Positions 39 to 15,723 of a DNA stretch of 37,500 nucleotides are shown here, in pieces (the stretch's first letter is position 1; every line of letters starts with the position of its first letter). Location: the NCBI GenBank assembly GCA_041648955.1, contig JBAZOD010000002.1, forward strand, positions 1 through 37,500, read 5' to 3'. The stretch comes from Patescibacteria group bacterium. GTDB lineage: Bacteria; Patescibacteriota; Patescibacteriia; Patescibacteriales; JAQTRU01. The position numbers and the translations under genes were made by a program. The notes beneath the pieces were generated by a model, which saw only the letters and a program-made list of their open reading frames with translations, was not told the origin of the DNA and did no database searches.

Positions 39-112
39 GGAGCGGTAGCTCAGTTGGTTAGAGCGCTGCCCTGTCACGGCAGAGGTCGCGGGTCCGAGTC
101 CCGTCCGCTCCG
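39..112 (+). tRNA. tRNA-Asp (anticodon GTC)
   Basis: Cloverleaf read by hand. Acceptor GGAGCGG/CCGCTCC, D-arm GCTC/GAGC, anticodon stem CTGCC/GGCAG with loop CTGTCAC (GTC), T-stem GCGGG/CCCGT, discriminator G. Near-identical in layout to classical bacterial tRNA-Asp. CCA is not encoded (G-CAG follows). Confidence 0.9.
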
Positions 113-1747
113 CAGTAATAATAAATTAGGGGTAGCAACCCCTTTTTTATTTTTATCTTCGCCGAAATCTTGGGTTATAGTGATAGCTTTTTGTTGATTA
201 TAAGAAATTAGAAATTTATATGGGCTTTCTTCTGTATTTATTAATGTTTTCGCTCTTAATATAGGGTTATAGTAAACAAATTTAAAATAGTCTCTTTTCT
301 CTTCTGGTGAAGCATTTTTAAATTTATCTACTAAATTACGATTAAAGTCTACATAGTTTGAACACAAATTAAACCAACCTTGATTTTGACTTTCTCTATC
401 TCCAATTTTTTCTCTAATTAAAGCTTGGTCTTGTAAAATTTTCCTCTTAAAATCTATAAATTGGTCATCAGATAATAATTCTCCATTTTTATTTTCAGGG
501 GATATTTTAAAATTTAATAAATTATCTAGTCTCGTCCCACATCTGTTTAGTTCTAATTGTTGCTGTTTCATTATTGAATCTCTATTTTTTATTTCTTGTT
601 CGTTTAATTTATTAATTTCTTCCATAGCTAAATTATAAAAGTCCTCATCAATTGAAACCTTTTTTAACCCCTCAATGATTTGCTCCTCAAGCACATCCTC
701 TCTTATATATAATTGTCCCGTGCATTTCATACAACGATAATAAGGATGCCCCTTTGAAGTTAATGCTGATATATTTCCCCCACAAACCCCGCATTTCAGT
801 AAATTTGAATATGTATAAAATCTCTTTTTTCCTATAGGTCGGCTGTGTTCTTTAAGAACTTGCTGAACGCGATAAAATAGTTCCTTGTTCACAATCGGGT
901 CGTGCCTAGTTTCGTCTGGAAGTTCTTCTGGCTCTATTATTACACCTTTCCAAAAAATCGCTCCACGATAAAATGGATTAGTTAATATTCTATAAATAGT
1001 TGCTTTACTTAATTTTTTTTTGCTCCTACCTCCTGTTAATCCCATTTCATAAGTTGTATCTCGTAATTTTTCAAGGGCGTATCTGCCAGTGGCAAAAAGT
1101 TTATATAATTCTAATACTATTGGAGCTAACAAAGGGTCAACCTCAATCCTTTTCAGTTTATTTTTTGAACATAAGATTTTTTGTTTTTCAAAAGTGTATT
1201 GTTTTCCCGATATCTTTTCGTTTTTATCAATATTTAAATAACCAACACAGGCATACCCAGGATATTCTCCTTTTCTAAGTTTTGATTTTATATCTCTTTT
1301 TACATATTCTGAAGTATCGTCAGAACTTTTCTTTTGCATAGCAAATTGAAGAGCGAGCAAAAATTCTTGCCCAGAATTTTTTCTATAAACTTCATTTGGA
1401 GTTCTAATTTCTTTAATAACACCATCTTTTAACATATCAATAATGATTCCTCCGTCTGTCATATTTCTCGCCAACCTTGATAAATGATAAACAAATATGG
1501 CGTTTGCTTTGCCTTTACGGATTAAATTTATCATTTTATTAAATTCTGGTCTTCCTGGCGAATAAGCACTCCTTGCTTCTTCAAACTCAGCGACAATATT
1601 TAAACCATTTGCTTTAGCATATTTAGAATTTTCAACTTTTTGTGCGGGCAAACTTAAAATTTGCCTATCCTCGGCTTCTGATGATTTTCTCCTATATTCT
1701 ACAAAAAACAATATTTCTGGTGTTAAATTTTCTTCTAATGTTAGCAT
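74..1747 (-). CDS. Large serine recombinase / integrase (resolvase catalytic domain, recombinase domain, zinc ribbon, coiled coil)
   Basis: N-terminal YRRKSSE...LSLPAQ serine-recombinase signature and VYHLSRLARN. Central recombinase-domain region. CGVCGG...YYRCMKC zinc ribbon followed by a long charged helical segment. The last roughly 20 codons run antisense across the tRNA gene. Confidence 0.9.
   Translation of the reverse strand: MLTLEENLTPEILFFVEYRRKSSEAEDRQILSLPAQKVENSKYAKANGLNIVAEFEEARSAYSPGRPEFNKMINLIRKGKANAIFVYHLSRLARNMTDGGIIIDMLKDGVIKEIRTPNEVYRKNSGQEFLLALQFAMQKKSSDDTSEYVKRDIKSKLRKGEYPGYACVGYLNIDKNEKISGKQYTFEKQKILCSKNKLKRIEVDPLLAPIVLELYKLFATGRYALEKLRDTTYEMGLTGGRSKKKLSKATIYRILTNPFYRGAIFWKGVIIEPEELPDETRHDPIVNKELFYRVQQVLKEHSRPIGKKRFYTYSNLLKCGVCGGNISALTSKGHPYYRCMKCTGQLYIREDVLEEQIIEGLKKVSIDEDFYNLAMEEINKLNEQEIKNRDSIMKQQQLELNRCGTRLDNLLNFKISPENKNGELLSDDQFIDFKRKILQDQALIREKIGDRESQNQGWFNLCSNYVDFNRNLVDKFKNASPEEKRDYFKFVYYNPILRAKTLINTEESPYKFLISYNQQKAITITQDFGEDKNKKGVATPNLLLLRSGRDSDPRPLP
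107..116 (+). repeat. Proximal copy of island direct repeat (attL-like core) inside the tRNA-Asp acceptor 3' strand
   Basis: cgctccgcag is identical to 15714-15723. Confidence 0.6.
128..148 (+). terminator. Short hairpin plus T-run downstream of tRNA-Asp
   Basis: aggggt-agca-acccct followed by tttttt. It lies inside the 3' tail of the antisense recombinase ORF. Confidence 0.4.
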
Positions 1748-2744: not shown

Positions 2745-2762
2745 ACTTATGTCATTATTTGG

Positions 2763-2791: not shown

Positions 2792-2821
2792 ATTATTGAG
2801 GTTTGTTGAAGTGCAAATTTT

Positions 2822-3010
2822 ATGCCAAATTCTAACAAAATACTATTAAATATAAACGAAGTAGCCGAACTTTTAGGTGTTCACCCTGAAACTTTAAGGC
2901 GTTGGGACAATGAGGGCAAACTAAAAGCTATTAGGATTGGTGATTTTGGACATAGAAAATACAGGAAAGAGGATATTGATAATTTACTTAATAATCACAA
3001 AAATGATTAA
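2822..3010 (+). CDS. Excisionase/MerR-type helix-turn-helix DNA-binding protein (62 aa)
   Basis: LNINEVAELLGVHPETLRRWDNEGKLKAIRIG...RKYRKEDIDNLL matches the excisionase-family HTH pattern. Its stop overlaps the downstream methylase start (ATGATTAA at 3003-3010). Confidence 0.8.
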   Translation: MPNSNKILLNINEVAELLGVHPETLRRWDNEGKLKAIRIGDFGHRKYRKEDIDNLLNNHKND

Positions 3011-3695
3011 TAACTGGATTAATACAATTCAAAATATTGATTGTTTAGATGGTTTTAAAAAATTATCTGATAATTCCGTTGATTTAATTTTAACTGACCC
3101 GCCTTATGGAATTAGCAGAGAGTTAAATTGTAAAAATCAGCGTTTAGGCACAACGGCTAAGTTAAATTTTCATTTTGGCGAATGGGATAAATTTAATAAA
3201 CTATGGTTTGATATTGCCGTTAAAAAAACAAAGGGCTGGATTATTAGTTTTTGTGCAAAAAAAGATATAGGTTTTTATTGGGATATATTGGAAAAAAATG
3301 ATTTTAAAGCTATTGATGTAATTGTTTGGCAAAAACCAGACCCAATTCCTTTAAACGGAAAAACTAAATTGCTTAATGCTTGGGAAGCCGCGATTATCGG
3401 CAAGAAAGCGGGAGCTCATTTCACCGGCAAATGCCGGCATAATATTTTTAAATATCAGGCACCAAAGGGCAAAAGTAGAATTCACCCGACCCAAAAACCA
3501 GTTGGTTTAATTGAGGATATAATATTACTAACTACTAAAAAGGGCGATATTGTTTTAGACCCATTTATGGGAAGCGGCACAACTGCCGTGGCTTGCATTA
3601 AAACAGGAAGAAATTATATAGGTTTTGAAATTGATAAAAAATATCACCGAGAATCTTTAAAAAGAATAAAGGAAACTCCTACGCCCTTGCTATAG
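3003..3695 (+). CDS. DNA methyltransferase, beta-class N6-adenine/N4-cytosine (M1)
   Basis: Motif IV LILTDPPYG is N-terminal, HPTQKP is present, and motif I FMGSGTT is C-terminal. That motif order indicates the beta group. The start is chosen at the ATG overlapping the HTH stop; the ORF track extends upstream to 2937. Confidence 0.9.
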   Translation: MINNWINTIQNIDCLDGFKKLSDNSVDLILTDPPYGISRELNCKNQRLGTTAKLNFHFGEWDKFNKLWFDIAVKKTKGWIISFCAKKDIGFYWDILEKNDFKAIDVIVWQKPDPIPLNGKTKLLNAWEAAIIGKKAGAHFTGKCRHNIFKYQAPKGKSRIHPTQKPVGLIEDIILLTTKKGDIVLDPFMGSGTTAVACIKTGRNYIGFEIDKKYHRESLKRIKETPTPLL

Positions 3696-4670
3696 TTTAA
3701 AAATGAGCTTAGCTTTTATCTTTTTTAAGTCGCCGTTAGATAGACTTGCTTGTAGACGCCTTAAAATTTTACCTTGTTCTTTAAATCGTCTTTTCTTGGC
3801 ATTTAGTTTTTGCTTTAACCGCTTGATAGTTTTAAGCGAGTCGGCTTCGTAGATTATTTTAATTTCAAAAGCGTCTTTGTCTACCACGGCTAAAATGATT
3901 TTATGGTCGCCTTTATATTTATTTAAAACATTTTTGGAAATATCCTGAAAATTCCAGTTATAATTTTTAGCCACTTTATACTCGTAATATCTGCCCTGTT
4001 TATCAACTGCGTCGTGGCCTAATTGTTCTGATAACACTCTATGCCCCAAAATTAATGAAACCAGTATTTCCCAAAATTTATTACTTGTCAGAACTTCATT
4101 GGTGCCAGTTATTTTTTCTATCTGTTTAGCTATTTTATATATTTCATCAAGCCATTTATAATATTTACCCTGTTTGCAGTTGCAATTATTATATGATTTC
4201 TGAATACCTAAATTTTTCTCAATTTGTTTAGAGCTGACATTAATCATTTTTCTGGCATTTTTAATTGGTTTGGTTTTTTCCGTTAGATAATCAGAAATAA
4301 TTTTTCCTGGCACATCATAATACCAATCAAATTTTGGAAAATTACCCGAATCGTCAATGTGAGCAAAAATTACCGCTTCTGCGTCATTTAACTTTTTTAT
4401 GGTAGTATCAGTATAGTCATTAAATGTCCAAGTGTGGTTAGAACTGTTTTCCTTATAATGTTTGTATTCATATTCGCCACCTTGTTGATTTTTAGCGTCC
4501 CTAGAGCCAGAATGCCCTGGAATTAAAAGGTGATTTAAATCATTGGCAATGACGATTTCAAATATTTTGGAATTTGATATGATATCAGTAACCCCGAATT
4601 TATTAAAAAAGTCGTCCTGAATTGCTTTAAGACGCTTTATAAAAATAGTTATATCTTCTTGTTTAGCCAT
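3690..4670 (-). CDS. Candidate type II restriction endonuclease with internally duplicated PD-(D/E)XK-like module
   Basis: Sandwiched between two methyltransferase genes. Two homologous halves align: SKIFEIVIANDLNHLLIPGHSGSRDAKNQQGGEYEYK...WTFND...VIFAHID and NKFWEILVSLILGHRVLSEQLGHDAVDKQGRYYEYK...WNFQD...IILAVVD. Each half carries a D...E-Y-K pattern. Confidence 0.6.
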   Translation of the reverse strand: MAKQEDITIFIKRLKAIQDDFFNKFGVTDIISNSKIFEIVIANDLNHLLIPGHSGSRDAKNQQGGEYEYKHYKENSSNHTWTFNDYTDTTIKKLNDAEAVIFAHIDDSGNFPKFDWYYDVPGKIISDYLTEKTKPIKNARKMINVSSKQIEKNLGIQKSYNNCNCKQGKYYKWLDEIYKIAKQIEKITGTNEVLTSNKFWEILVSLILGHRVLSEQLGHDAVDKQGRYYEYKVAKNYNWNFQDISKNVLNKYKGDHKIILAVVDKDAFEIKIIYEADSLKTIKRLKQKLNAKKRRFKEQGKILRRLQASLSNGDLKKIKAKLIFKL

Positions 4671-4681
4671 ATTTATAATAT

Positions 4682-5605
4682 ATGCCAGATAAATCTATTA
4701 TCACCATATCAAACAAATTTAATAAAATCAACGATTATAACTTAATTTGCGAGGATACTTTTAAGGTTTTACCGCAAATTCCTGATAATTTTGCCGACCA
4801 TTGCATTACCGACCCGCCCTATAATATTTCTGGTTATGATTTTAAAAAGGAAATTGGCTGGTTAAAATCAAACAAATATTGGAGCGAGCAGAAAAACTTT
4901 AAAAAAATTGAAGAGGACTGGGATAAATTTTCTAATGGCGATTATGAAAAATTTACTAAATTATGGTTAGATGAAATTTTCAGAATAGTTAAGCCAAACG
5001 GAAATATTATTATTTTTGGCAGTTACCATAATATTTATAAAATTGGTTATCTTTTGCAGAAAGACCATAAGAAAATTATTAATTCCGTAGTCTGGTTTAA
5101 ACGTAATGCTTTTCCAAATATAACCCAACGGATGCTTTGCGAAAGCACAGAACATATTATCTGGGCGGTTAATGAAACGGACGATAAGGCTAAAAATTGG
5201 ACTTTCAACTACGAAGAATTAAAAAAATATAATACGGTTAAAGAGTGTGGCAAATGCAAAAAAATTATTGATGCCGAAAATAAATATTGTCCTAATTGTG
5301 GAAATAATATTTTTAAAACCAAAAAATTACAATTAAGGAACTTATGGGATATTCCGTCAACGCCAGCAGGGGAAAGAAAACACGGAAAACATCCATCGCA
5401 AAAACCTATCCAAGTATTAGAAAGATTAATTGTTGGCGGAACGAAGAAAGATGAAATAATAATTGACCCCTTTGCTGGAAGTGGCACGACTGCTTTAGTA
5501 ACAAAAAATTTAGGTAGAAAATTTGTTGCCATTGATAACGACAAAAATTACTGTAAAATAATTTTAAATAGATTAAAAGACGGTTATCAGGAAAATATGA
5601 TTTAA
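4682..5605 (+). CDS. DNA methyltransferase, beta-class N6-adenine/N4-cytosine, with zinc-ribbon insertion (M2)
   Basis: CITDPPYNI (motif IV), HPSQKP, FAGSGTT (motif I). There is an inserted CGKC...CPNCG four-cysteine segment. The start codon is only 11 bp from the divergent endonuclease start. Confidence 0.9.
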   Translation: MPDKSIITISNKFNKINDYNLICEDTFKVLPQIPDNFADHCITDPPYNISGYDFKKEIGWLKSNKYWSEQKNFKKIEEDWDKFSNGDYEKFTKLWLDEIFRIVKPNGNIIIFGSYHNIYKIGYLLQKDHKKIINSVVWFKRNAFPNITQRMLCESTEHIIWAVNETDDKAKNWTFNYEELKKYNTVKECGKCKKIIDAENKYCPNCGNNIFKTKKLQLRNLWDIPSTPAGERKHGKHPSQKPIQVLERLIVGGTKKDEIIIDPFAGSGTTALVTKNLGRKFVAIDNDKNYCKIILNRLKDGYQENMI

Positions 5606-5629
5606 AAGCAGAAAATTTAAATTTAATGA

Positions 5630-5658
5630 TTGATTTTTTACAGTTTTTATGCTAATAT
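5630..5658 (+). promoter_or_regulatory. Sigma70-like promoter with extended -10
   Basis: TTGATT (5630-5635), 17 bp spacer, tgc-TAATAT (5653-5658). Confidence 0.4.
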
Positions 5659-5664
5659 TAAGAT

Positions 5665-5812
5665 AGTATTTAACAATTTATGGTCTAAACCTTAAATTTA
5701 TTTAAGGCATGGCCAAAAGTCCTAGACAGCAGAGATGGTCTTCTGACCAGTTTTAAGCTGTCTAGGCGTATATCCGAAAGGATATATTTAACTGCGTTGG
5801 AAGACCTTTTTT
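5665..5812 (+). ncRNA. Candidate structured leader or small RNA upstream of 5851..6204
   Basis: Hairpins: ccttaaa/tttaagg (5690-5707). A perfect 10-bp stem cctagacagc/gctgtctagg (5721-5730 / 5757-5766) encloses tggtc/gacca. atatcc-GAAA-ggatat (5768-5787). ggtcttc (5737-5743) can alternatively pair with gaagacc (5800-5806), which is followed by T6. Confidence 0.3.
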
Positions 5813-5850
5813 GTATTGAAAATTATCAATTATTTTTAACTCTTGAATTT

Positions 5851-6204
5851 ATGGCGACAATTAATGTATTGGCAGGAAATATAAAAAAGGGTAAATGGCA
5901 TTTTTATGGTTTTTTTGGCTCTACCGTAATGAATAGAGATTTTGGCGAAGATATTGAGTTAAGTAAATATAATGTTAAAAGTATTGAGATGATTAACGAG
6001 GAAAAAAGAAAAAAATTAGCAGGCACGGCTGGTTGGGGGCTTGTTGGAGCAGTAGCGTTAGGGCCGTTGGGAGCTATCGGCGGTATGCTTTTAGGCGGTA
6101 ATAAAAAAGAGGTTATTTTTACTTGCGAGTTAGAAGATGGCAGAAAATTTATGGCTTCAACTGACTCTAAGACTTGGATAAAAATACAATCAGCTAATTT
6201 TTAA
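5851..6204 (+). CDS. Hypothetical protein with glycine-zipper membrane segment
   Basis: ATG at 5851; the track start at 5797 is a TTG inside the structured leader. Contains AGTAGWGLVGAVALGPLGAIGGMLLGG, a glycine-zipper-like hydrophobic stretch. Confidence 0.55.
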   Translation: MATINVLAGNIKKGKWHFYGFFGSTVMNRDFGEDIELSKYNVKSIEMINEEKRKKLAGTAGWGLVGAVALGPLGAIGGMLLGGNKKEVIFTCELEDGRKFMASTDSKTWIKIQSANF

Positions 6205-6222
6205 GAAAATAAATCTAAAATT

Positions 6223-6645
6223 ATGTCTAAGACAAACAGCGACAAGGAAAATAATCAATCCAAAAATGATTTAAACGACAACGGGGAAGAACAAAAAAGT
6301 ATTACTCAATGGCAAACATCACTTTCAAAACAATTTAAGATTATTTTAATATTCTTTTTATTTGTAGCCTTAATTCTTGTCATATCTAATTATCATATTG
6401 TTTTAGACGCGACTGATTTAACTAAACCAATAATTTTTATTGAACGACCTTACTGGGGATTTTCTGATATGATTAGTAGTGTAAAAACTTGCACCGAAGC
6501 TCCCAGATATAGCGTGATGATAAATCACCCGTCCCTATGTAAAGCCTTGCAGAATGCTGGATACTTAGAAAGCGAGGAGGCGGGGATTAAAAGAATAGAG
6601 GCTGAAACTATGCAGAAATTGCAATTGTATAAATTGCTACAATAA
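6223..6645 (+). CDS. Hypothetical single-pass membrane protein (140 aa)
   Basis: Polar N-terminus followed by the hydrophobic helix IILIFFLFVALILVISNYHIV. No motif recognised. Confidence 0.55.
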   Translation: MSKTNSDKENNQSKNDLNDNGEEQKSITQWQTSLSKQFKIILIFFLFVALILVISNYHIVLDATDLTKPIIFIERPYWGFSDMISSVKTCTEAPRYSVMINHPSLCKALQNAGYLESEEAGIKRIEAETMQKLQLYKLLQ

Positions 6646-6690
6646 AGTGATTGGATTGTTTATGCTATAATAAAAGTGTAAGAAAAAAGT

Positions 6691-7662
6691 ATGGAAATAA
6701 GAAAAACTATTGAACTATTGGCTGTTTTTTCTATCGCACTTTTGTTGTTGACTGGATGCGAGGCGACAAACAATTCGCAGGGTAATAATCAAAACGCTAA
6801 CGTAGTGGCGAGTTCTTCTGATAATAATAAACAGGAAGAACCAAAGGCGAAAGAACAAAAACCAGTAGGGCAAGGAAAAAAACAAATAGAAAAGCAAGCA
6901 ACTCAAAAGACCGATACTAAAACAAAAAGTGAAGCTGAAAATAGTATAAGCCAAACAAAAACTGTGGCTGATAATATTTTAAGCGACACAAAAAATAACA
7001 GCGAAGAAATAAAATATTATAAAGTTATTAAAGTAGTGGACGGCGATACAATTGCCGTTGACATTGACGGGGTTAGCGAAACTTTGCGGTTGATTGGTAT
7101 AAATACTCCTGAAACAGTAGACCCCAGAAAACCTGTTGAATGTTTTGGCGTTGAAGCGAGTAATAAAGCTAAAGAATTATTAAGCGGTAAGTCGGTAGCT
7201 TTAGAAAAAGACAACAGCCAAGATGAAAGAGATAAATATGGCAGGCTTTTAAGATATATAAGGACAAAAGAGGGTTTATTCTATAATTTAGAAATTATCA
7301 AACAAGGCTATGCCTATGAATATACTTATGATGTTCCGTATAAATATCAAAGCGAGTTTAAGGAAGCTGAAAATTACGCCCGCACTAAAAAATTAGGTTT
7401 ATGGGCTGACGGGACTTGCCCAGCAAAAATAGATAGCTCTGCTACCGCTCCTGTTGCCCCTGAAATAAAACCAACAGAAACTATAGTTAAGCCGCCCGAA
7501 ACAAAATCACAATGCGAATGTTCATCTAATAAATATAATTGCCCTGATTTTAAAACTCAGGCCGAAGCTCAGGCTTTATGTGAATGGTGTGGCGGAACCA
7601 GTAATGACATCCACAGATTAGACAGCGATAAAGACGGAAAGGTTTGTGAATCATTGCCATAG
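6691..7662 (+). CDS. Secreted lipoprotein thermonuclease (staphylococcal-nuclease fold) with C-terminal Excalibur calcium-binding domain
   Basis: Lipobox LLLLTGC. SNase-like VVDGDTIAV...LRLIGINTPE...ECFG...GRLLRYI...GYAYEY...GLW. C-terminal CPDF...DSDKDGKVCE is an Excalibur DxDxDG motif. Confidence 0.85.
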   Translation: MEIRKTIELLAVFSIALLLLTGCEATNNSQGNNQNANVVASSSDNNKQEEPKAKEQKPVGQGKKQIEKQATQKTDTKTKSEAENSISQTKTVADNILSDTKNNSEEIKYYKVIKVVDGDTIAVDIDGVSETLRLIGINTPETVDPRKPVECFGVEASNKAKELLSGKSVALEKDNSQDERDKYGRLLRYIRTKEGLFYNLEIIKQGYAYEYTYDVPYKYQSEFKEAENYARTKKLGLWADGTCPAKIDSSATAPVAPEIKPTETIVKPPETKSQCECSSNKYNCPDFKTQAEAQALCEWCGGTSNDIHRLDSDKDGKVCESLP

Positions 7663-7761
7663 TTATTTATCATTTATAAAAAACGGGCAAAAAATCTTTT
7701 TCACCCCCTGCTGTAGCAAGGTTGCCATTTAAGATTTTTAAAAGTGGAAGTGTGTATTTTC

Positions 7762-7809
7762 ATAGGGGGGTGGGGTAGGACGATTACTATCGGCTATAAC
7801 TTCAATATT
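7762..7809 (+). repeat. Site S1: recombination-site-like repeat with core ggctataact (7792-7801)
   Basis: The 40 nt ending at the core match 29/40 ungapped with 9531-9570 (S2). The 9-mer ttcaatatt follows the core; the same 9-mer precedes the core at S3. Confidence 0.5.
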
Positions 7810-8188
7810 ATTAGTTTTAAGTAAAAGCCAGCACTACTTATAGGGTGTGTGGCTTTTTTATTAGCTTGTTTTGACCACCCTAAAGTGTAGATTTAATCTA
7901 ACATCAGATAAAAAAGTGGATAACTCGGTTGATTTACGAAATTGCCTGTTTATTAGCCTTTCATTTCCATTTTTATCTGTCGTTCGTTTTTTATTAGGGT
8001 ATGCTTTTAGCTCACTGCCCCTAATTACTACTCACTCCATAGCACCTATTCCTCGGTAAAATTCAGGGCGTAGCAAGTGTTTTGTCATAGACAAGTGGAA
8101 TGATATATCTGCGGGGGATGTGCTGTATACAGGGCTTTAAACATTAAGTTTTAATACCTAAATTAATGCTAATATTAGTTAAATTTAC

Positions 8189-8217
8189 TTGCAAGTTTTA
8201 TATTATTATGCTATTAT
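8189..8217 (+). promoter_or_regulatory. Sigma70-like promoter with extended -10
   Basis: TTGCAA (8189-8194), 17 bp spacer, tgc-TATTAT (8212-8217). Confidence 0.4.
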
Positions 8218-8240
8218 ATAAGTAAGGTTAGCCAAAAAAT

Positions 8241-8321
8241 ATGAAAAAGATAAAAAATATAATCTTTAAATTATGCCTGGTAATTACTATAATCTACTCC
8301 GTTTTGGAGTGGGCAAATTAA
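8241..8321 (+). CDS. Possible 26-aa hydrophobic peptide (hand-translated)
   Basis: Translates to MKKIKNIIFKLCLVITIIYSVLEWAN. About 25 bp downstream of the candidate promoter. Weak ribosome-binding site. It could be chance in AT-rich DNA. Confidence 0.2.
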   Translation: MKKIKNIIFKLCLVITIIYSVLEWAN

Positions 8322-8388
8322 TATTGTTTAATTTAATAAAGCCACTAATAGACAGGCTCCCTGAACAACAAAGGAAGTCTGTTTTTTT

Positions 8389-8727
8389 ATGCGGCAAAAT
8401 TTTATGCAATTAATGACCAAAGAGTTGGAAAAACAATTTAAAAAGGTCGGCAGTCAGGAAGATGTTAAAGACCCGATTGTGGTTTGTAAATTTTTTAATC
8501 CCTCGGGTATTGGCTATTGGTTCGCTACCGAGTATAACCCTGAAGATAAAATATTCTTCGGGTATGTTTCTTTCTTCGGCGACCATAATGATGAGTGGGG
8601 TTCGTTTAGTTTAAAAGAATTGGAGGAATATTGCGGCCCGTTCGGATTGGGCATAGAAAGAGATTTACATTTCCATTCTGAACCTATTAGTAAAGTTATG
8701 CCTAAGGCAATTTTAAATATAATTTAA
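8389..8727 (+). CDS. DUF2958-like protein
   Basis: KELEKQFKKVGSQE...DPIVVCKFFNPSGIGYWFATEY...FGYVS...EWGSFSLKELEE...GLGIERDLHF matches my recollection of the DUF2958 family common on conjugative or integrative elements. The true start may be an internal Met. Confidence 0.7.
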   Translation: MRQNFMQLMTKELEKQFKKVGSQEDVKDPIVVCKFFNPSGIGYWFATEYNPEDKIFFGYVSFFGDHNDEWGSFSLKELEEYCGPFGLGIERDLHFHSEPISKVMPKAILNII

Positions 8728-8750
8728 CAAAAAAGACATACTATTTTGTT
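8726..8750 (+). repeat. Quasi-palindromic site, copy 1 (aacaaaa-N11-ttttgtt)
   Basis: The 15-nt caaaaaagacatact (8728-8742) is identical to 15609-15623. It lies just upstream of the small serine recombinase ATG at 8764. Confidence 0.5.
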
Positions 8751-9534
8751 AATTAAAAAATTTATGCAAGACAAACTAAACTATTATGCATATTTAAGAG
8801 TTTCAACGGAAAATCAAAAAAATGACCAAACTATTCAAATACAGGAAGTAGCCATTAAAGAATACGCCGAAAAGAATAACATTAATATTGTTAAAATGTT
8901 TGAAGATAATGGAGTATCTGGTGGACTTGAAGATAGGCCGGCATTAGCCGAGTTATTTGATGCTCTTGAAACAAACGCTAAAGATATTGAAGGGATTATC
9001 ATTTTCAAATTAGACCGACTCGCTCGGGATGTCAGAATTCAAGAAAATTTAATTTATGACCTGCAAGAAAAGCGGGGAAAGAAAATTATATCTTTAAGCG
9101 AGCCAGACTTAAACTCAAAAGATATAACCAGAGTTTTGATGAGACAAATGATTGGAGCTATCAGCCAATATGAAAAGGGCTTGATAGCAATGCGTTTAAA
9201 GGCTGGAAGAATGAACAAGTTGAGAAAAGGCGGATTTCCAGGCGGTGGCGTTGCCTTGGGCTATGAAATAATTGATAATGATTTAATCTTGAATCAAGAG
9301 GAAGTAAAAATTGTCAAACAGATTTATTACTTAAAGCGGTATAAGCGATTTAATTTAACCGCAATTGCTAAAATCTTAAACAGCAATAACATTAAAACTC
9401 CTAAGGGTGGAATAAAGTGGTATGCGGGAACGGTTAAGTATATTTTAAATAATTCTATCTATCGCGGGCGAATGACTTATAGCGGAGTGGAAGCCATAAG
9501 GGGCGATTTATCTTTAATCCTTAATAAGAAATAG
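8746..9534 (+). CDS. Small serine recombinase (resolvase/invertase family)
   Basis: YAYLRVSTENQ catalytic-serine motif, RPALAEL, IIIFKLDRLARD, and a C-terminal recombinase-domain segment (GGVALGYE...YRGR). The likely true start is ATG 8764 (MQDKLNYYAY); 8746 is TTG. Confidence 0.9.
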   Translation: MLIKKFMQDKLNYYAYLRVSTENQKNDQTIQIQEVAIKEYAEKNNINIVKMFEDNGVSGGLEDRPALAELFDALETNAKDIEGIIIFKLDRLARDVRIQENLIYDLQEKRGKKIISLSEPDLNSKDITRVLMRQMIGAISQYEKGLIAMRLKAGRMNKLRKGGFPGGGVALGYEIIDNDLILNQEEVKIVKQIYYLKRYKRFNLTAIAKILNSNNIKTPKGGIKWYAGTVKYILNNSIYRGRMTYSGVEAIRGDLSLILNKK

Positions 9535-9600
9535 GGTTTTAGGGAAAGACGATAGATATTGACTATAACTAAAAAAAGGCAAAAAATTGCCCTTTTTATG
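9531..9600 (+). repeat. Site S2: recombination-site-like repeat with core gactataact (9561-9570)
   Basis: Its left arm resembles the S1 left arm (29/40). The core plus right arm (aaaaaaaggcaaaaaattgcccttttt) match S3 at 33/40. The right arm forms a small ggcaa/ttgcc hairpin between A and T runs. Confidence 0.5.
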
Positions 9601-9621
9601 CTAAATAAATTAAAGAAAATT

Positions 9622-10428
9622 TTATAGACTTATAATTTTGCAACTATTTACCTCGCCCCGACATTTATATCCTATTGTTAAATCTATAATTTTTCCATAT
9701 CTCTCGGTTGATACTAACGCTCCAATAAATCTTTCATCCTTTAGTTCATTTAATAAATCTAGGGTTTTAAAATTTTTGTTTTTATATTCAATCAAGTTTT
9801 TTGCAACAGGTATTTTTTTTATATTATAAAGCAATTCAGTCAACTCTGATGGTTGCCCAAATTTTGATTCAGATAAATCTAGTTGTCCTCCTAAAAAATG
9901 ACCATTCATTAAATAAAACCAAACCCCGTCATACTCTTTCATTATGGAAGTAAAATTACCTTTTTCGTCATTTGCTCCTGCTTTTATATAAATATATGCA
10001 TCTTCTATTTCTCCTGTTATTTTAATTTTTCTTCCAGCATTTGTTAATGCCTCCTCGTCTTTTTGTATATAATTGTCAGGAGTTTCTATGCCATCTAAAT
10101 AAATAGGGGTTTTCTTATATAAATTTGAATTATATTTTTCAAAATCAGTTTGTTCTTTTACTGCCTCTTCTTTTTCCTCGGGTTTAATATTTTCAATATT
10201 TATCTCTTTGTTGTCAATATTTTGGTTAACGGTAGTCTCTGGAATATTATTATTTTTATCTTTAGATAAATTTTTAACGATATATAAAACACCAAAAATA
10301 GACAATAACAAAATAATTACCGTCATAATATCTAAAGCTATGCCCCTAATTCTTTCTTTTATATTCATTTTGCTTTTTATTTCTTCCTCTATTTTTTCTC
10401 TTAATTTTTGCTCATCACCTTGAGACAT
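9622..10428 (-). CDS. Hypothetical membrane-anchored protein (268 aa)
   Basis: N-terminal charged segment, then the helix IALDIMTVIILLLSIFGVLYIV. No motif recognised. Confidence 0.55.
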   Translation of the reverse strand: MSQGDEQKLREKIEEEIKSKMNIKERIRGIALDIMTVIILLLSIFGVLYIVKNLSKDKNNNIPETTVNQNIDNKEINIENIKPEEKEEAVKEQTDFEKYNSNLYKKTPIYLDGIETPDNYIQKDEEALTNAGRKIKITGEIEDAYIYIKAGANDEKGNFTSIMKEYDGVWFYLMNGHFLGGQLDLSESKFGQPSELTELLYNIKKIPVAKNLIEYKNKNFKTLDLLNELKDERFIGALVSTERYGKIIDLTIGYKCRGEVNSCKIISL

Positions 10429-10778
10429 AAAGTTGATAATGTATTAATGATAAATTTATAGAAACAAAGAAATAGAAAAAAGATAAATGTGATGTGGAAA
10501 TAATTACTCCAATCTTTTATCCTTTCATATCCCACAAAAGTTCCTAAAGCTAAAAGTAGGTTGCTAATATTATCTAAATCAATCATTTGGTCATAGCTCA
10601 TTCCATAGACTTTCTTTACCCATGATAGTAACAATAGACTTGTTAATACTATTCTACTAACTTTCCATAAATTGTCGCTTTCTTCAATAAGTCTATGCAA
10701 TTTAACCAAAATATTCTTTCTGTCTTTTAAAAAATTTATTTCCAACATATTTAAAGATGTATTTTGACACCTTATCAA
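10401..10778 (-). CDS. Hypothetical membrane protein (125 aa)
   Basis: ORF with hydrophobic segments that overlaps the downstream gene by 28 nt. Coding status uncertain. Confidence 0.35.
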   Translation of the reverse strand: MIRCQNTSLNMLEINFLKDRKNILVKLHRLIEESDNLWKVSRIVLTSLLLLSWVKKVYGMSYDQMIDLDNISNLLLALGTFVGYERIKDWSNYFHITFIFFLFLCFYKFIINTLSTLCLKVMSKN

Positions 10779-10838
10779 AATTATTGTATCTAAGTCAAGC
10801 TGTTAATTCTAGATATAAAAAATAAGGTGCGTAATTAA

Positions 10839-11333
10839 CTATATATTGTTTAAATTTTCTTTGATAATTTCAAAATTAATATTATCGCTATGCCTGATAT
10901 GGATAATTTTTATTCCCGCTGATTTTAAAGTGTTATTTACAAAATAATCTCTTCTCTGCCTTTTGGGGCTATCGTGGGTTTTGCCGTCATACTCAATCGC
11001 CAATACGGGTTTAAGATATGGCTTCTCAAAAATAACGAAGTCTATAGTTTTCCTATTAATTTTATTTTGATAAGTCCAAAAACTTCTGACCGAATTATTT
11101 ACATTAACAATACTGCCAAGAACTATCTGGGGGAAGACCACATAATTGTCAGGAATAATTTGTTGGATATTCTCAAAAAATTTTCTTTCAGGAATGTTTA
11201 ATAGAAATTCTTTCTTCTTGTAAGTTTGGAAGTCGTCATATTCTTCCTCTTGAGCCAAAAAATATTCTTTGAAAGCATATACGGCTATGAGCAAGATGAT
11301 TATTCCACCTAAAGTTAGATATGTATTTAGCAT
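10839..11333 (-). CDS. Membrane-anchored DUF2726-like (endonuclease-fold) protein
   Basis: N-terminal helix LTLGGIIILLIAVYAF. PERKFFENIQQIIPDNYVVFPQI...IDFVIFEK...PVLAIEYDGKTHD...RRD resembles the DUF2726 pattern as I recall it. Confidence 0.7.
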   Translation of the reverse strand: MLNTYLTLGGIIILLIAVYAFKEYFLAQEEEYDDFQTYKKKEFLLNIPERKFFENIQQIIPDNYVVFPQIVLGSIVNVNNSVRSFWTYQNKINRKTIDFVIFEKPYLKPVLAIEYDGKTHDSPKRQRRDYFVNNTLKSAGIKIIHIRHSDNINFEIIKENLNNI

Positions 11334-11402
11334 ATAGCTAGAATTTTAATCTTAGCTATATTATATCACAAATTTGGTAATATGCTTTATTTTCTCAATA
11401 TA

Positions 11403-11451
11403 TTCAATATTGGCTATAACTAAAAAAGGGCAAGTAATTGCCTTTTTTGTA
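11403..11451 (+). repeat. Site S3: recombination-site-like repeat with core ggctataact (11412-11421)
   Basis: Preceded by ttcaatatt. The right arm aaaaaagggcaagtaattgcctttttt is homologous to the S2 right arm. Confidence 0.5.
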
Positions 11452-11467
11452 AGTTTATGGACAAAGA

Positions 11468-14400
11468 ATGTTCAAAGTATTAATATTTAAGGGTAATTCA
11501 AAATATATGTCTTATAAAAAGGAGCAAATTAGTCCAACCACAAAAATAAAAGTTTATATTAATTGTGGCGGTAAATGCGGTTTTCCTGAATGCAAGGAAC
11601 ATTTAGTTGAAGAAAATAGTATTATAGGTCAGATAGCCCATATTAAAGCCCAACAACCAGGAGGGCCAAGATTTGATATTACTTTAACCAAAGATAAAAT
11701 AGATGCCCCAGAAAATTTAATTGCTTTTTGTCAAAAACACCATAAAATAATTGATGACCATCCAGATAAATATTCAGTAGAAGATATTTCAAATTGGAAA
11801 AAAGATATTGAGGAATGGGCTAAAAAATCACCAGAAAAAACCGAACTTGGAAAAAAATTAATATTGATAATATTATCTGACTTAGAAAAGGAGTTAGACA
11901 GGGGCAACGGAGAATATGTGCTAAAAACCATACAATCGCTTAAAATTATTACGGAAACGATTATTAAAGATGATATTATTGGCAGTGAAATTGGGATATT
12001 AGAAGCAAAATCAAAACAAGCCCTGGAAGATGTTGAGGGAGCTATAAAAATTTACGAAAGCCTTTCAAAACTTTATCCTAAAAATGTTAAACCTATCTTG
12101 TATTTGGCTGAAATTTATTTAAATAAATGCGACTATGAAAAAAATAAAGAGCTCTTAGAACAGGCAGAGAAAATAGATAATAGCCACTGGCTTTTTGTGA
12201 TTGAACAGCTTATTAGAGAATTTCGTTTAAACAAAAAAATTGATACATCAAAAATAAATGAAAAGGATTTTCCAGAAGATAAGAAGCAAAAGGCAACCTA
12301 CTATCGTATCTATTCCCTGTTTTATCAAAACGAAAAAAACGATATTAAGGCAGATGAGTTTATAGAAAAATCAATTAAACTATATCCCTACTCATTTTCT
12401 GCTTTTAATTTGAAAATATCTCATAATCTACAGAGGTTAATTGAAAAAGGGTTTCCTCTTAATCATATTGAAAAAGCCGAGGACATATTAAGTCAGATTA
12501 AAGAGATTGAAAAAGAAAAAAATAATTGGGACAGATTACATATCAGAGGTAGAGCTACCCTTGAATTTAGAAAATTTTATATTTATATAATACAACAAGA
12601 TGGTAATAAAATTATTTCAACAGGCAAGGGGTTAATTGACCTCATACTTAAGTGCTCATTTGATTTAGATATAGATAATTTTTTATCCTTTCTCCTTGCA
12701 AATTATCGTCCAGAAGAAAAAGACTTTGAAAAAATTATTTCATATTTATCAAATAAAAAAATCTCTTACGATTTAGCTAAAATACTCGCTTTTCAATTTT
12801 GTGAAAAAGGCAAGTTATTAACTGATGGCAAGAATTTTTTATCAGCCAAAAATGAAAAGATTAAAAATTTAATTTTGAATATAGAAGAAAACAAAGAAAG
12901 CGACGTGATTAATTTTCTTAAAGAAGATTTGCAGTTAATGATAACTTTTGCAAATTGCTTAAAAACCAACTCAGGTTTAAGAAAAAAAATAATAGACAGT
13001 GTGCCAGATGATGAGAATATTCAAAAAGATAGAATCTATTTATTGTATTATTCTGACATAAAAGCATATGATGACGCCTTTAGGATTATCCAAAATATTG
13101 ATTTTGAAAATGCAAGTTATCTTGACTGTAAAATATCTTTAAAAGCAGTCCGTGAGAAACAAGCGTGGGAAATGGAGGCAAAAATTTTAGAAAGACTATT
13201 CCAATTAGAAAAAGATGAAAGAATAAAATTATCGTTTAAATTAGACCATTTTACAGCTTGTATGAAGATGGAGGATTATTTGGAAGTTATTAATATAGGT
13301 AAATATTTATTGGATAACCCTAAGACATTTGAGCTAATGGATAAAAAAAATCAAGAATTATTATTAGGACAAACAATCACAGCTTATCTACAAAGAAGTG
13401 AAGAAAAAGAGGCTTTAGGAATGCTTCAAAAATATCCAAATATTATTGAGAGCTTTGAGTTTATTATTTCGGTAGAGGCTGAAGTTTACTTAAAAAATGG
13501 AGATTATAAAAAAGCATTATCATCTTTATGTAGAGGAGTAAAAAAAATTGGGAAACCAACAAAGGAACAATATGGATATTTATTTTTGTCTTTTACTCAA
13601 TTAAGTAATTCTGGTTTTGCTAAAATTGAACCACTTGAAAAAGTTGTAAGTAATTCTTTTATAAAATTCCAAAATCAAGAGCAATGGTATTATATCGGAG
13701 ATGGGGACGAGCTAGACGCCACTAAAATTATTTCAGCAAATAATAAATACAATTTATTAATTAACAAAAAAATAAATGATAATATAGATTTTCCTGAGGA
13801 TAAATATCAAACCAACAAAGAACAGAGAATAGTTGAAAATATTTTGAGTCTAGAGGCTTATATAAATTGGAAATCCCACGATAGCTTTTTTAGTTTATCA
13901 AAACAAGGAAGATGGGACGCAGGAATAGCGATTGAAGTGCCGAATAAAGATGATAGTATAGATGTTAATAATGTAATTAATTTTATTAAAGACCAACAAG
14001 AGAGAGGCAGAAATTTTTTTGATGATTATTGTTCAAATAATTATCCTTTCGCATTTTTAGCTTTAAGCGAGGGGGGAGTAACCAATGCCATCGGCAGAAT
14101 TACAAATGAAAACAAGGGATTTATAAGATTTTCTGATGGTTCAATCCAAGATATTGACCGTCAAAGAAAAGTAGCTGAAAAAATACTTAACGGTTCAGAT
14201 ATTTTTTTAGATGGGACAACGGCTCTTTTCTTGGCTGAAACAGGATTGTTAAAAAAAATAGTGCCTTTCATCCCTAATTTAAAAGTTCCTCAATCAGTTA
14301 TTTCTTTCTTATTTAAAGTATTGGAAAAATTTAATATTTCACCTGGGCAGGTTGGTCATATGCGATGTGCTAATGACCAACTAGTATTTGATAAGGTTGA

Positions 14401-15151
14401 TATTGAAAAAAATAACAAAATAAAAGAAAATTTTAAACAGAGCATAGAAATTTTAGAGAAAGATAAAAAAAGTATTTTTTCTATCTCTCAAGCAAATAAA
14501 TCTGAGCACTTTTCAGAAAGTAATATTGTCCCCGAATTGGTGGATGCCTGTATTTTAGCACAAAAGAATGACGGTATTGTATTAACTGAGGATTTTTTAT
14601 ATTTGCAAGCCAATAATTTGCAAACAAATAAAGGTATACCAGAATATTGTTCACTGTTTTCTTTAATTAAAGAGTTGCTTAAAAAAGATAAAATATCTTT
14701 TGAGGACTATCTGAATGCCTTTTATTATTTGTCATCGTATAGGTGTAGGTTTCTAGATTTAAATACTGGTATTTTAATTAGGGCAATTTTTGGAGAAGAT
14801 AATAAATTGATTTTTGAATTTAAAAATATTAGAAAGTTAAATTTAGCTTTAACTTTATCCGAAGAATATGGAGTAAAAACAGAGGCCGCTATTCAGGTTA
14901 TGGGGGGATTTTTAGTAAGAATTATTATAGCCAATATTGTTTCTGTAGAAAATGCAAATAAAGTTTACAGAGAGGTGTTGCCAACTTTTTTCTTAAATCG
15001 TGATAAAAAAATTATCGGAAGATTATTGTTTGAATATTGTTCAAACTCTTTAGAGAAAATACTTAAAGAAAAATACATTTATTCCTTGCCGATTTTGATG
15101 AGTGAAAAATTAGCGGCTTTAGAAAAACAAATAAACGCACAACTGTTATAG
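11468..15151 (+). CDS. 1227-aa multidomain protein: N-terminal HNH nuclease motif, long TPR-like helical repeat region, C-terminal PIN-like domain
   Basis: HNH: CGGKCGFPEC...QIAHIKAQQPGGPRFD...NLIAFCQKHHKIIDD (about nt 11564-11760). TPR-like: AIKIYESLSKLYPKNVKPILYLAEIYLNKCDYEKNKELLEQA and VYLKNGDYKKALSSL. PIN-like: DIFLDGTTALFLAE (from nt 14198) ... ELVDACILAQKNDGIVLTEDFLY. An alternative start is ATG 11507. Confidence 0.8.
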   Translation: MFKVLIFKGNSKYMSYKKEQISPTTKIKVYINCGGKCGFPECKEHLVEENSIIGQIAHIKAQQPGGPRFDITLTKDKIDAPENLIAFCQKHHKIIDDHPDKYSVEDISNWKKDIEEWAKKSPEKTELGKKLILIILSDLEKELDRGNGEYVLKTIQSLKIITETIIKDDIIGSEIGILEAKSKQALEDVEGAIKIYESLSKLYPKNVKPILYLAEIYLNKCDYEKNKELLEQAEKIDNSHWLFVIEQLIREFRLNKKIDTSKINEKDFPEDKKQKATYYRIYSLFYQNEKNDIKADEFIEKSIKLYPYSFSAFNLKISHNLQRLIEKGFPLNHIEKAEDILSQIKEIEKEKNNWDRLHIRGRATLEFRKFYIYIIQQDGNKIISTGKGLIDLILKCSFDLDIDNFLSFLLANYRPEEKDFEKIISYLSNKKISYDLAKILAFQFCEKGKLLTDGKNFLSAKNEKIKNLILNIEENKESDVINFLKEDLQLMITFANCLKTNSGLRKKIIDSVPDDENIQKDRIYLLYYSDIKAYDDAFRIIQNIDFENASYLDCKISLKAVREKQAWEMEAKILERLFQLEKDERIKLSFKLDHFTACMKMEDYLEVINIGKYLLDNPKTFELMDKKNQELLLGQTITAYLQRSEEKEALGMLQKYPNIIESFEFIISVEAEVYLKNGDYKKALSSLCRGVKKIGKPTKEQYGYLFLSFTQLSNSGFAKIEPLEKVVSNSFIKFQNQEQWYYIGDGDELDATKIISANNKYNLLINKKINDNIDFPEDKYQTNKEQRIVENILSLEAYINWKSHDSFFSLSKQGRWDAGIAIEVPNKDDSIDVNNVINFIKDQQERGRNFFDDYCSNNYPFAFLALSEGGVTNAIGRITNENKGFIRFSDGSIQDIDRQRKVAEKILNGSDIFLDGTTALFLAETGLLKKIVPFIPNLKVPQSVISFLFKVLEKFNISPGQVGHMRCANDQLVFDKVDIEKNNKIKENFKQSIEILEKDKKSIFSISQANKSEHFSESNIVPELVDACILAQKNDGIVLTEDFLYLQANNLQTNKGIPEYCSLFSLIKELLKKDKISFEDYLNAFYYLSSYRCRFLDLNTGILIRAIFGEDNKLIFEFKNIRKLNLALTLSEEYGVKTEAAIQVMGGFLVRIIIANIVSVENANKVYREVLPTFFLNRDKKIIGRLLFEYCSNSLEKILKEKYIYSLPILMSEKLAALEKQINAQLL

Positions 15152-15179
15152 AAAGATTTTATTTTAGAGATTTTAAAAT

Positions 15180-15500
15180 TCACAAATTTTCAATAATCCG
15201 AAAAATTCTAGTAAAATTTTCCCAATCTTTCAATCGTGTCTCCTGCCATCCTCTGCTGGTTCTGATTTTTAAAAAGATTTTTTGCCTCTGAATTATTATC
15301 TGAATGAATTTTACCTTATCCTTTATAAACCAAATTCTTCTCTTAGTAAAAACAACCTCGCAATTATATCTTGCTGGGATTATTTTTATTAATTTATCAG
15401 CTTGACCCCTTAGCCTTAGATTATCCGTGTTTAATAGGTGGTAGCTTAGGTCGTAAAGCCTTGCCTGGCTGGGGCGGGTATATTTATTAGTATTAGTCAT
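15180..15500 (-). CDS. Hypothetical basic protein (106 aa)
   Basis: Intact ORF convergent with the 1227-aa gene. No motif recognised. Confidence 0.45.
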   Translation of the reverse strand: MTNTNKYTRPSQARLYDLSYHLLNTDNLRLRGQADKLIKIIPARYNCEVVFTKRRIWFIKDKVKFIQIIIQRQKIFLKIRTSRGWQETRLKDWENFTRIFRIIENL

Positions 15501-15536
15501 AAAGTTAAGTAAAGGTAATATATAGGCTTTTATTTA

Positions 15537-15592
15537 GGGGGTAAAATTAATGGCTTTTGCTACTTGCCGGCAACGCCATTAATTTTACCCCC
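15537..15592. repeat. Perfect 18-bp inverted repeat with 20-nt spacer
   Basis: gggggtaaaattaatggc (15537-15554) and gccattaattttaccccc (15575-15592). The spacer contains the palindrome ttgccggcaa. It is 37 bp upstream of the minus-strand ORF start at 15500. Confidence 0.8.
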
Positions 15593-15607
15593 TTTAGTAT
15601 TAGCCTA

Positions 15608-15630
15608 TCAAAAAAGACATACTTTTTTGA
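15608..15630 (+). repeat. Quasi-palindromic site, copy 2 (tcaaaaaag-acata-cttttttga)
   Basis: Shares 15 identical nt (15609-15623) and 21/23 overall with 8728-8750, in the same orientation. Confidence 0.5.
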
Positions 15631-15713
15631 CGAAAAAACTTAGCTATGATTTACTGTAGGTATATAATAATAGCCTTTAATAGACTTGAAGTAGGTTATA
15701 GTCTCGTCTATTA

Positions 15714-15723
15714 CGCTCCGCAG
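15714..15723 (+). repeat. Distal copy of island direct repeat (attR-like core)
   Basis: cgctccgcag is identical to the tRNA-Asp 3' end at 107-116. It is flanked on the island side by tatta, whose reverse complement taata flanks the proximal copy on the island side. Confidence 0.6.

Follow-up and report, generated by a model that had tools for sequence, protein, structure and literature searches.

The 37,500-nt stretch of DNA analysed here (the window; positions 1 to 37,500 of contig JBAZOD010000002.1), low-GC DNA (GC ~0.3) from a landfill metagenome, carries a genomic island of ~15.6 kb that contains three copies of the motif GRCTATAACT, S1, S2 and S3, arranged around and beyond a gene for a small serine recombinase. 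Comparison with related elements from metagenome-assembled genomes (MAGs) of Patescibacteria shows that the three sites are related but not equivalent, and suggests that they are a record of how the cargo zone of the island was built and not a working set of att sites. In the explanation we favour, to which we would give about an even chance of being right, S1 belongs to the conserved backbone, S2, its paralogue by an old duplication, borders the cargo, and S3 is the scar of a joining of two cargo blocks. The family of elements to which the island belongs is, in our view, a more interesting outcome than the repeat sites themselves. Coordinates of all features are collected in Table 1, and relatives are referred to by locus handles (L001 and so on).

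The three cores, first noticed in a sequence-only reading of this DNA, are confirmed and all lie on the plus strand. No fourth GRCTATAACT is found on either strand of the window; shuffled sequences are expected to hold 0.08 copies, and none of 100 shuffles reached three. The likeness of the left arm and core of S1 to those of S2 amounts to 29/40 positions (73%; 7762-7801 versus 9531-9570), and that of S2 to S3, which likewise stands, to 37/42 (88%; 9556-9597 versus 11407-11448), and both are top families in a repeat search of the window. When 30-nt arms are anchored on the core the matches are 20/30 and 24/30, where at least 20/30 has p ~1e-4 against random 30-mers of the island. The terminator hairpin common to S2 and S3 (AAAAGGGCAA..AATTGCC) occurs in the window at these two sites only. 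The 9-mer TTCAATATT reported to link the two unmatched arms is present 3' of the S1 core (7801-7809) and 5' of the S3 core (11403-11411), with a third copy at 10192. It is statistically marginal: a 9-mer shared between random island 30-mers has p ~0.01 per arm pair, or ~0.04 over the four unmatched pairs.

S1 is embedded in nc1, a conserved non-coding element in which an invariant AGGGGGGT, the palindrome, a TTATAAC-type core and a covarying terminator (T1) follow one another in this order. The S1-type palindrome shows GC<->AU compensatory changes, and the core itself varies among elements (CTATAAC, CTTTAAC, CTTTATC, CTTTATA, TTATAAC and others). S1 sits 100-130 nt inside a block of backbone homology. 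The AT-rich 22-nt spacer that follows its core, previously read as the odd arm of the site, is missing in L001, L007, L008 and L085, and L093 has a spacer at the same position, so this spot is indel-variable and the spacer was rejected as a recombination footprint. With a conserved right flank and a spacer that varies by indels, S1 is therefore not a hybrid site: both of its flanks are conserved backbone in nine elements, contrary to the proposal that it arose as the product of an insertion.

The 5' 100 nt of nc1 (7666-7760) are strongly conserved, for example in CCATTG.GATTTTTAAAAGTGG and AGATTT....AGGGGGGT, and no consensus secondary structure was predicted for them, a combination that, at the level of sequence, suggests recognition as DNA. 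The series CGTAGCAA...AAGTGGAA...GGGGG is found again at 8068-8110, and the conserved 5' motifs and this recurrence may be protein-binding sites. No known RNA family matched 7600-8420 or 9500-11520 at E values up to 10, and a pattern scan of genome contigs and viral contigs for empty nc1 sites returned only two known elements and five unrelated matches. An origin of replication in the non-coding region was considered and set aside, the DnaA-box-like TGTGGATAA of L001 and L008 not being conserved in L007 or L002.

S2 lies directly 3' of the recombinase stop codon, in one subclade. Nucleotide homology between the window and L001/L007 extends from 7659/7666 to 9596/9598, unbroken through the DUF2958 and recombinase genes; it begins just past the stop codon of the SNase gene and stops at the last T of the S2 terminator. 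This continuous homology makes the S1-S2 segment a fixed part of the backbone and not the cassette that it had been taken for. The S1-S2 unit is present in all of the approximately five close elements, with no empty slot seen. Matches to a profile of the 40-nt left arm plus core are confined to the five closest elements (the window, L001, L007, L085 and L005/L008), each of which has exactly two. Across these five, S1s cluster with S1s and S2s with S2s, so the duplication is an old one and not the result of recent exchange; S2 is an old paralogue of S1 that is found only in the closest subclade. S2 is absent from elements at 63-75% recombinase identity, and in L002, L091 and L093 only 2-3 nt separate the recombinase stop codon from the end of a convergent cargo gene.

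The palindromes of S1 and S2 are both 18 bp long and in the same register, and while their arms vary between elements their centres are constant, the central dinucleotide being AC in every S1 and GA in every S2 of the five elements. Even length and a 2-bp centre are what one would expect of a site at which a serine recombinase crosses strands over, and judged by sequence these palindromes are probably binding sites of the small recombinase. With AC in one and GA in the other, exchange between S1 and S2 is predicted to give mismatched overhangs and fail, and is thus unlikely. The S2 terminator tracks the recombinase phylogeny, and the terminators of L007 and L085 are near-identical with different DNA downstream. 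As the terminator stays with the backbone while the DNA beyond it changes, the cargo breakpoints lie to the right of the terminator and not in the core or palindrome; recombination at the GRCTATAACT core, as once suggested, does not agree with breakpoints ~28 nt beyond it.

S3, by contrast with S1, does have the make-up of a hybrid junction, with a foreign left arm derived from a gene and an S2-type right arm. In L001 and L002 the sequence homologous to its left flank is the 3' end of a 109/129-aa backbone gene. On the minus strand the window fragment translates as PILNILRK*SILPNL*, with an in-frame stop, and the C-terminus of the L002 protein is DILEKQSILLNL*; the TGA stop codon of the backbone gene lies within an extended -10 promoter (TGATATAAT) from which the minus-strand cargo is expressed. 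With a gene remnant on the left and S2-like sequence on the right, S3 is therefore what is left of the right border of a cargo zone, joined to a left border in the form of an S2 copy. Its terminator copy serves no purpose between two divergent start codons. The region is thus mosaic, as had been seen, with S2 and S3 delimiting a variable cargo block (slot A) next to the serine recombinase gene and a second block (slot B) between S3 and a 106-aa backbone gene.

The same S3 arrangement is found in L007, including the homologous promoter and 5' untranslated region (UTR), and there the genes of both slots are unrelated to those of the window. The L007 S3 has both palindrome halves with a 2-nt central deletion; the window S3 has lost ~9 nt, which removes the left half. 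L001 is an independent case, with a 46-nt, 91% identical copy of the S2 terminator and the promoter region following it between two plus-strand cargo operons, and its near-twin L005 is without this duplicate. Among the approximately five close elements the contents of both slots differ, and no homologue of the slot A proteins was found in related elements. The DUF2958 protein, the recombinase reading frame (8746-9534) and the DUF2726 protein are as first described, but the other two minus-strand frames between S2 and S3 match no family. In the slot B protein an HNH-like nuclease at the N-terminus, matched by the PADLOC models for a CBASS-type effector and for PDC-M68A, is followed by TPR repeats and a TPR-GreAB-C-PIN-type PIN domain; its start is likely ATG 11507, not 11468.

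We propose that two related elements, rec-S2-cargoA-106aa and rec-S2-cargoB-106aa, would have come to lie in tandem at one att site, and that a deletion would then have taken out the DNA between a point within the first 106-aa gene and the S2 of the second (in equivalent wording, cargo A and its right flank would have been joined into S2), giving rec-S2-cargoA-(106aa'/S2')-cargoB-106aa. Both slots would later have swapped their content, most simply by recombination within the conserved flanks, and joins at S2 were perhaps catalysed by the recombinase or favoured by hairpins. A tandem array fits the 17-kb MAG contig JBAZFW010000020.1 (L005, L008 and L107), which begins and ends with copies of the DUF2958/recombinase module that are 92% identical and in direct order, with a 109-aa gene and a large serine recombinase (LSR) gene between them. 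Either two related elements stand here in tandem, or the contig is a chimera of strains assembled from a circular form. If this history of joined cargo is true, the island offers a nucleotide-level picture of a defence-cargo zone of the candidate phyla radiation (CPR) growing by the joining of two elements' cargo, and a first outline of an apparently undescribed element family.

Several observations weigh against this history. The tandem and the deletion are reconstructed from end products, no intermediate with the same cargo having been found, and the two-module contig could be the chimeric assembly. The S3 of the window matches S2 sequences better (37/42 and 33/42) than it matches the L007 S3 (30/42). 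Separate events or gene conversion could be behind this, and both would speak for a site-specific process; descent of the two S3 sites from a single event is accordingly uncertain. Moreover, the identity between S2 and S3 of the window begins at the second base of the S2 central dinucleotide, as a serine-recombinase crossover would give, and two independent joins (window/L007 and L001) fall within ~45 nt between the recombinase stop codon and the terminator, a clustering that hints at a preferred site.

The recombinase gene itself had been described as encoding 262 aa; its reading frame is as stated, but the start is probably ATG 8764, which gives 256 aa as in homologues. The catalytic domain (PF00239, 3e-31) is intact, with Y16, R18, S20, D90, R91 and R94 (the catalytic Tyr, Arg and Ser and the DRLxR motif) invariant in 23 homologues. 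After the alpha-E helix comes a recombinase domain (PF07508, 9e-12) that covers positions 2-64 of the 102-position profile, its first two-thirds, and the protein ends ~15 residues later, below the 400-700 aa of LSRs. It has no match to the PF13408 zinc ribbon, which the 557-aa LSR of the island does have, and no coiled coil. As it possesses the recombinase domain without the zinc-ribbon/coiled-coil module, we call it a mini-LSR: the catalytic and recombinase domains of the LSR class are there, and the zinc ribbon, coiled coil and length are not. Its best NCBIfam matches are to the N-terminal 240 residues of CcrB and CcrC. Foldseek places the AlphaFold model (pLDDT 76) closest to the integrases of SPbeta, Bxb1 and phiC31, with which it aligns over both the catalytic and the recombinase domain, and the model superposes on an A118-type recombinase domain at 2.1 Å over 88 residues. 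The mini-LSR does not belong to the class of small resolvases and invertases of about 180-200 aa (Tn3, gamma-delta, Hin, Gin), in that its C-terminal ~100 aa match an LSR recombinase domain and form no short helix-turn-helix; resolvase and invertase structures align over its catalytic domain only. This truncated LSR is widespread, its family having 1615 matches, nearly all of ~250 aa and from many phyla. Scanning metagenomes with the recombinase gave six loci, all of lineages already recovered, and among viral contigs no match exceeded 53% identity.

A hairpin peculiar to the family, CAAAAAAG-N5-CTTTTTTG, lies 10-20 nt upstream of the mini-LSR start in all elements, with a near-identical second copy close to the far end (P and D in the window; L091 5136/11484; L094 7519/15904; L002 9967, 15311 and 16229; L093 4347, 10230 and 11150). 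Variants of its loop and stem are element-specific yet common to both copies. The P/D pair is significant and covaries between elements, but its odd 8+5+8 geometry is unlike a serine-recombinase crossover site, and in L002 and L093 similar hairpins lie just upstream of the starts of the integrase and 106-aa genes. P and D were therefore rejected as the true recombinase sites and are more likely a shared regulatory hairpin (an operator or attenuator) than recombination sites.

The clustering of joins around S2 could also be explained by a cassette system of the mini-LSR, a possibility that we take seriously though we think it unlikely. S2-type palindromes would then be crossover sites, cargo A would have entered as a circle at S2, much as cassettes enter attI of an integron or SCC elements their integration site, S3 would be a second S2-type site whose decay (the central deletion in L007, the lost left half in the window) fixed the cassette, and S1 would be a non-partner or regulatory copy. 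Such a system would account for an even-length palindrome with a 2-bp centre directly after the recombinase gene, for S2/S3 identity that starts at the palindrome centre, for the two half-sites retained in the L007 S3, for independent partial S2 duplicates at cargo junctions (window/L007 and L001) and for cargo that starts right after the recombinase gene in every element; CcrB and CcrC, whose N-terminal halves are the best NCBIfam matches, are moreover recombinases of cassette chromosomes. It is hard to reconcile with an S2 terminator that follows the recombinase phylogeny and stays with the backbone as cargo changes, with the restriction of S2 to only about five elements, with its absence in relatives at 63-75% identity, where the cargo of L002, L091 and L093 abuts the stop codon within 2-3 nt, and with an S3 left arm that is a gene remnant unlike an S2 half-site. 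Nor were empty sites, circles or variant junctions found in the nc1 pattern scan and the contigs of a single run. The more specific idea that the mini-LSR is a dedicated cargo recombinase, which captures, concatenates or swaps defence blocks at 18-bp S2-type palindromes just behind its own gene and leaves S3-type half-sites as decayed products, is a little more doubtful still. If true, it would describe a platform for acquiring cassettes that relies on a serine recombinase where others use a tyrosine recombinase. Activity at S2 would make the mini-LSR a minimal enzyme of its class whose site is short and simple, of interest for the movement of cargo between elements and possibly as a compact enzyme for genome engineering.

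S1 and S2 might instead act in RNA, as the same 3'-end module (a G-rich tract, stem-loop, CUAUAAC and intrinsic terminator) of an nc1 small RNA and of the recombinase mRNA, serving a common RNA-binding or processing factor and leaving S3 as a non-functional relic. We rate this as doubtful, below either form of cargo recombination. On the coding strand an intrinsic terminator directly follows each of the two sites, the S1 stem shows the compensatory changes noted above, the S2 stems tolerate G-T (G.U on the plus strand) in three of the five elements, and the start codons on either side of S3 diverge, so that no transcript is expected to terminate there. Folding z-scores are weak, however, at -1.4 to -1.7, the conserved 5' 100 nt of nc1 without consensus structure point to recognition as DNA or by protein, palindromic protein-binding sites would covary likewise, and there is no Rfam family match.

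The sequence-only reading as written, in which three equivalent sites recombine at the core, S1 and S3 are hybrids produced by an insertion into an S2-like site and genes are actively shuffled, is improbable and largely refuted by the comparative data. The three direct core repeats, the mosaic arms and the 9-mer common to the odd arms are in its favour, but the S1 flanks are conserved on both sides in nine elements, the core varies between elements (CTTTAAC, CTTTATC, CTTTATA), the S1 and S2 centres differ in all five elements, the breakpoints come after the terminator and the 9-mer is marginal. There is also no sign of shuffling at present: in the contigs of the single public run that holds this DNA (Logan contigs) no population variants or alternative junctions were seen at S1-S3, a weak negative. 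Contigs of the run span S1 (6600-8606) and S2 with S3 (8886-12600) without branches, and the three joints reported have sides of 20-21 nt in AT-rich DNA and lie away from the sites except for one spurious end at 9605. Finally, chance similarity of AT-rich intergenic DNA (GC ~0.3) or of generic terminators, to which the hairpin that makes up part of the S2/S3 match might point, is scarcely credible and is refuted by three cores against 0.08 expected, arm identities with p <=1e-4, a terminator type confined to S2 and S3 and the retention of S1 and S2 in five elements.

Approximately ten distinct related elements were recovered, located next to tRNA genes and with either an LSR or a tyrosine integrase; the tRNA adjoins the integrase in L002, L093 and L094 too. 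Their shared backbone comprises the LOOT RNA, the 135/140-aa genes, a ~700-nt non-coding region that includes nc1, a small peptide, usually a DUF2958 gene, the mini-LSR and, beside the integrase, a gene of 98-129 aa. The LOOT RNA was found in nine of the ten elements scanned, throughout upstream of the 135/140-aa genes and 1-2 kb before the mini-LSR, and this genomic context for an orphan RNA makes its function testable whichever explanation of the sites holds. Each element has its own, unrelated set of genes between the mini-LSR and the small backbone gene, and these are mostly defence-like: AAA_15 plus HNH and OLD-TOPRIM plus UvrD in L094, SocA and RelA/SpoT in L093, CHAT in L001, methylases in L105, and DUF2726 and HNH-TPR-PIN proteins in the window. 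A literature search, which included DUF2958, LOOT and serine recombinases in Patescibacteria, found no description of the element family, and as far as the literature searched goes the family (LOOT RNA, nc1, mini-LSR and cargo zone) appears to be new.

At the level of the island, the 10-mer CGCTCCGCAG at the 3' end of the tRNA-Asp gene recurs at 15714-15723, and the island therefore spans about 114-15723, with the LSR at its left end and the 106-aa gene, whose homologues adjoin the integrase in relatives, at its right end. The 3' end of the 557-aa LSR frame extends into the tRNA-Asp gene, so integration shapes the C-terminus of the LSR. Other island genes encode two DNA methylases, a PvuII-like nuclease, the 135- and 140-aa proteins and an SNase. 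The hydrophobic 26-aa frame at 8241-8321, also found in L001, L002, L007 and L008, may encode a peptide resembling type I toxins. A perfect 19-nt inverted repeat precedes the 106-aa gene near the right end of the island, 15536-15554/15575-15593 (AGGGGGTAAAATTAATGGC ... GCCATTAATTTTACCCCCT). Beyond the island, GC content reaches 0.57 over 20500-22500, around an M20 peptidase gene (20925-22184), in a genome of ~0.30, which could reflect recent foreign acquisition or an assembly chimera. The minus strand of 23265-30744 carries five tandem paralogues of 477-523 aa, and each of the three scanned has only a C-terminal PEP-utilisers mobile domain; the five adjoin a separate PPDK_N gene (19201-20175).

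Table 1. Positions of the island's features in the window, and of the LOOT RNA in related elements (nt, nucleotide).
Feature	Position	Strand	Evidence or remark
tRNA-Asp, integration target	39..113	+	ARAGORN, Rfam
Island integrase: large serine recombinase, 557 aa, Resolvase + Recombinase + Zn_ribbon_recom	74..1747	-	Pfam
Terminal direct repeat CGCTCCGCAG, left copy (attL core)	106..115	+	exact 10-nt repeat at tRNA 3' end
LOOT RNA (RF03000)	5682..5800	+	62 bits in window
nc1, conserved non-coding element	7666..7874	+	nhmmer matches in 9 distinct elements; alignments
S1	7762..7801	+	18-bp palindrome 7778-7795 GGACGAT-TACT-ATCGGCT; core 7792-7801
AT-rich 22-nt spacer TCAATATTATTAGTTTTAAGTA	7802..7823	+	3' of S1 core
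Terminator T1 of nc1	7827..7859	+	conserved covarying hairpin; fold
Hydrophobic 26-aa open reading frame (MKKIKNIIFKLCLVITIIYSVLEWAN)	8241..8321	+	own promoter, terminator 8351-8388; five-element alignment
DUF2958 protein	8389..8727	+	Pfam 7.6e-18; syntenic in most relatives
Hairpin P (CAAAAAAG-ACATA-CTATTTTG)	8728..8748	+	16 nt upstream of mini-LSR ATG
mini-LSR: catalytic domain, alpha-E helix, recombinase domain	8764..9534	+	Pfam, NCBIfam, PDB sequence search, AlphaFold2 model, Foldseek
S2	9531..9598	+	left arm, 18-bp palindrome 9547-9564 (AGACGATA-GA-TATTGACT), core 9561-9570, bidirectional terminator 9571-9598
Cargo slot A	9622..11333	-	268-aa and 125-aa open reading frames (no family), DUF2726 protein (10839-11333)
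Extended -10 promoter (TGTGATATAAT, minus strand) and pseudogene remnant, last ~15 codons of 106/129-aa backbone gene	11357..11411	-	nt homology to L001, L002, L007
S3, partial S2 copy	11407..11448	+	right half-palindrome, core 11412-11421, terminator; 37/42 to S2
Slot B promoter and 5' UTR	11449..11506	+	conserved with L007, downstream genes differ
Cargo slot B: HNH-like nuclease + TPR + PIN protein	11507..15151	+	Pfam; PADLOC effector nuclease, PDC-M68A
106-aa backbone gene, right border of cargo zone	15180..15500	-	blastp to L001, L002, L091, L093, L096, L097
Hairpin D	15609..15629	+	20/21 identical to P
Terminal direct repeat CGCTCCGCAG, right copy (attR core)	15714..15723	+	then rpsO, NYN-domain gene, pnp
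LOOT RNA in relatives	L001 8281-8409, L002 8293-8419, L007 2359-2477, L008 2196-2324, L085 5900-6032
LOOT RNA in relatives	L091 2742-2867, L093 2571-2695, L094 4975-5103, L105 8991-9115

Among known systems, the staphylococcal composite cassette chromosomes (SCC, with CcrAB or CcrC) resemble the island in a serine recombinase, that of the island having CcrB and CcrC as its closest NCBIfam matches, in direct repeats that separate cargo blocks and likely accretion in tandem. The Ccr enzymes, however, are full-length LSRs with a zinc ribbon and coiled coil, both of which the mini-LSR is without, and in SCC the repeats, which are true att cores, mark the outer limits of the island as well, whereas the ends here carry CGCTCCGCAG, used by the separate 557-aa LSR. 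An SCC-like array would have its core at the outer ends and at each junction; GRCTATAACT is found internally only, and S1 is no junction. Integrons (IntI, attI, attC) likewise have a recombinase gene beside the start of variable cargo and hairpin-forming sites at cassette ends, but IntI, a tyrosine recombinase, works on attC in its folded single-stranded form, where here there is a serine recombinase, two slots and no attC-like element per gene. Each slot contains between one and three genes, which have promoters of their own and can point either way, and the site profile finds no further copies.

With the resolvase-res systems of Tn3/gamma-delta and with plasmid multimer resolution the island shares a small, catalytically intact serine recombinase and palindromic sites near its gene, and the TTATAA-like motif presumably recalls the centre of res site I. 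The differences are an LSR-type recombinase domain instead of a ~40-aa helix-turn-helix and, where a res has three subsites, none of which arrangement was identified here, two palindromes that flank the gene 1.8 kb apart and have different centres. Serine invertases and shufflons act on inverted sites; S1, S2 and S3 are all direct, with no significant inverted copy in the region.

Defence-gene hotspots between conserved core genes are known in integrative elements, prophages and satellites (P2/P4-type). The island differs from these in its Patescibacteria host, in a left flank that consists of a serine recombinase gene and a palindromic site, and in a backbone with the LOOT RNA and a long conserved non-coding region. 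Like them, it has conserved borders, one formed by the mini-LSR with S2 and the other by the 106-aa gene with the integrase, around unrelated, mostly defence-like cargo that varies among close relatives, and scars of flank sequence between concatenated cargo blocks. Indeed, it shows the features of a cargo hotspot, namely conserved syntenic flanks, unrelated cargo, an integrase and defined ends at a tRNA gene.

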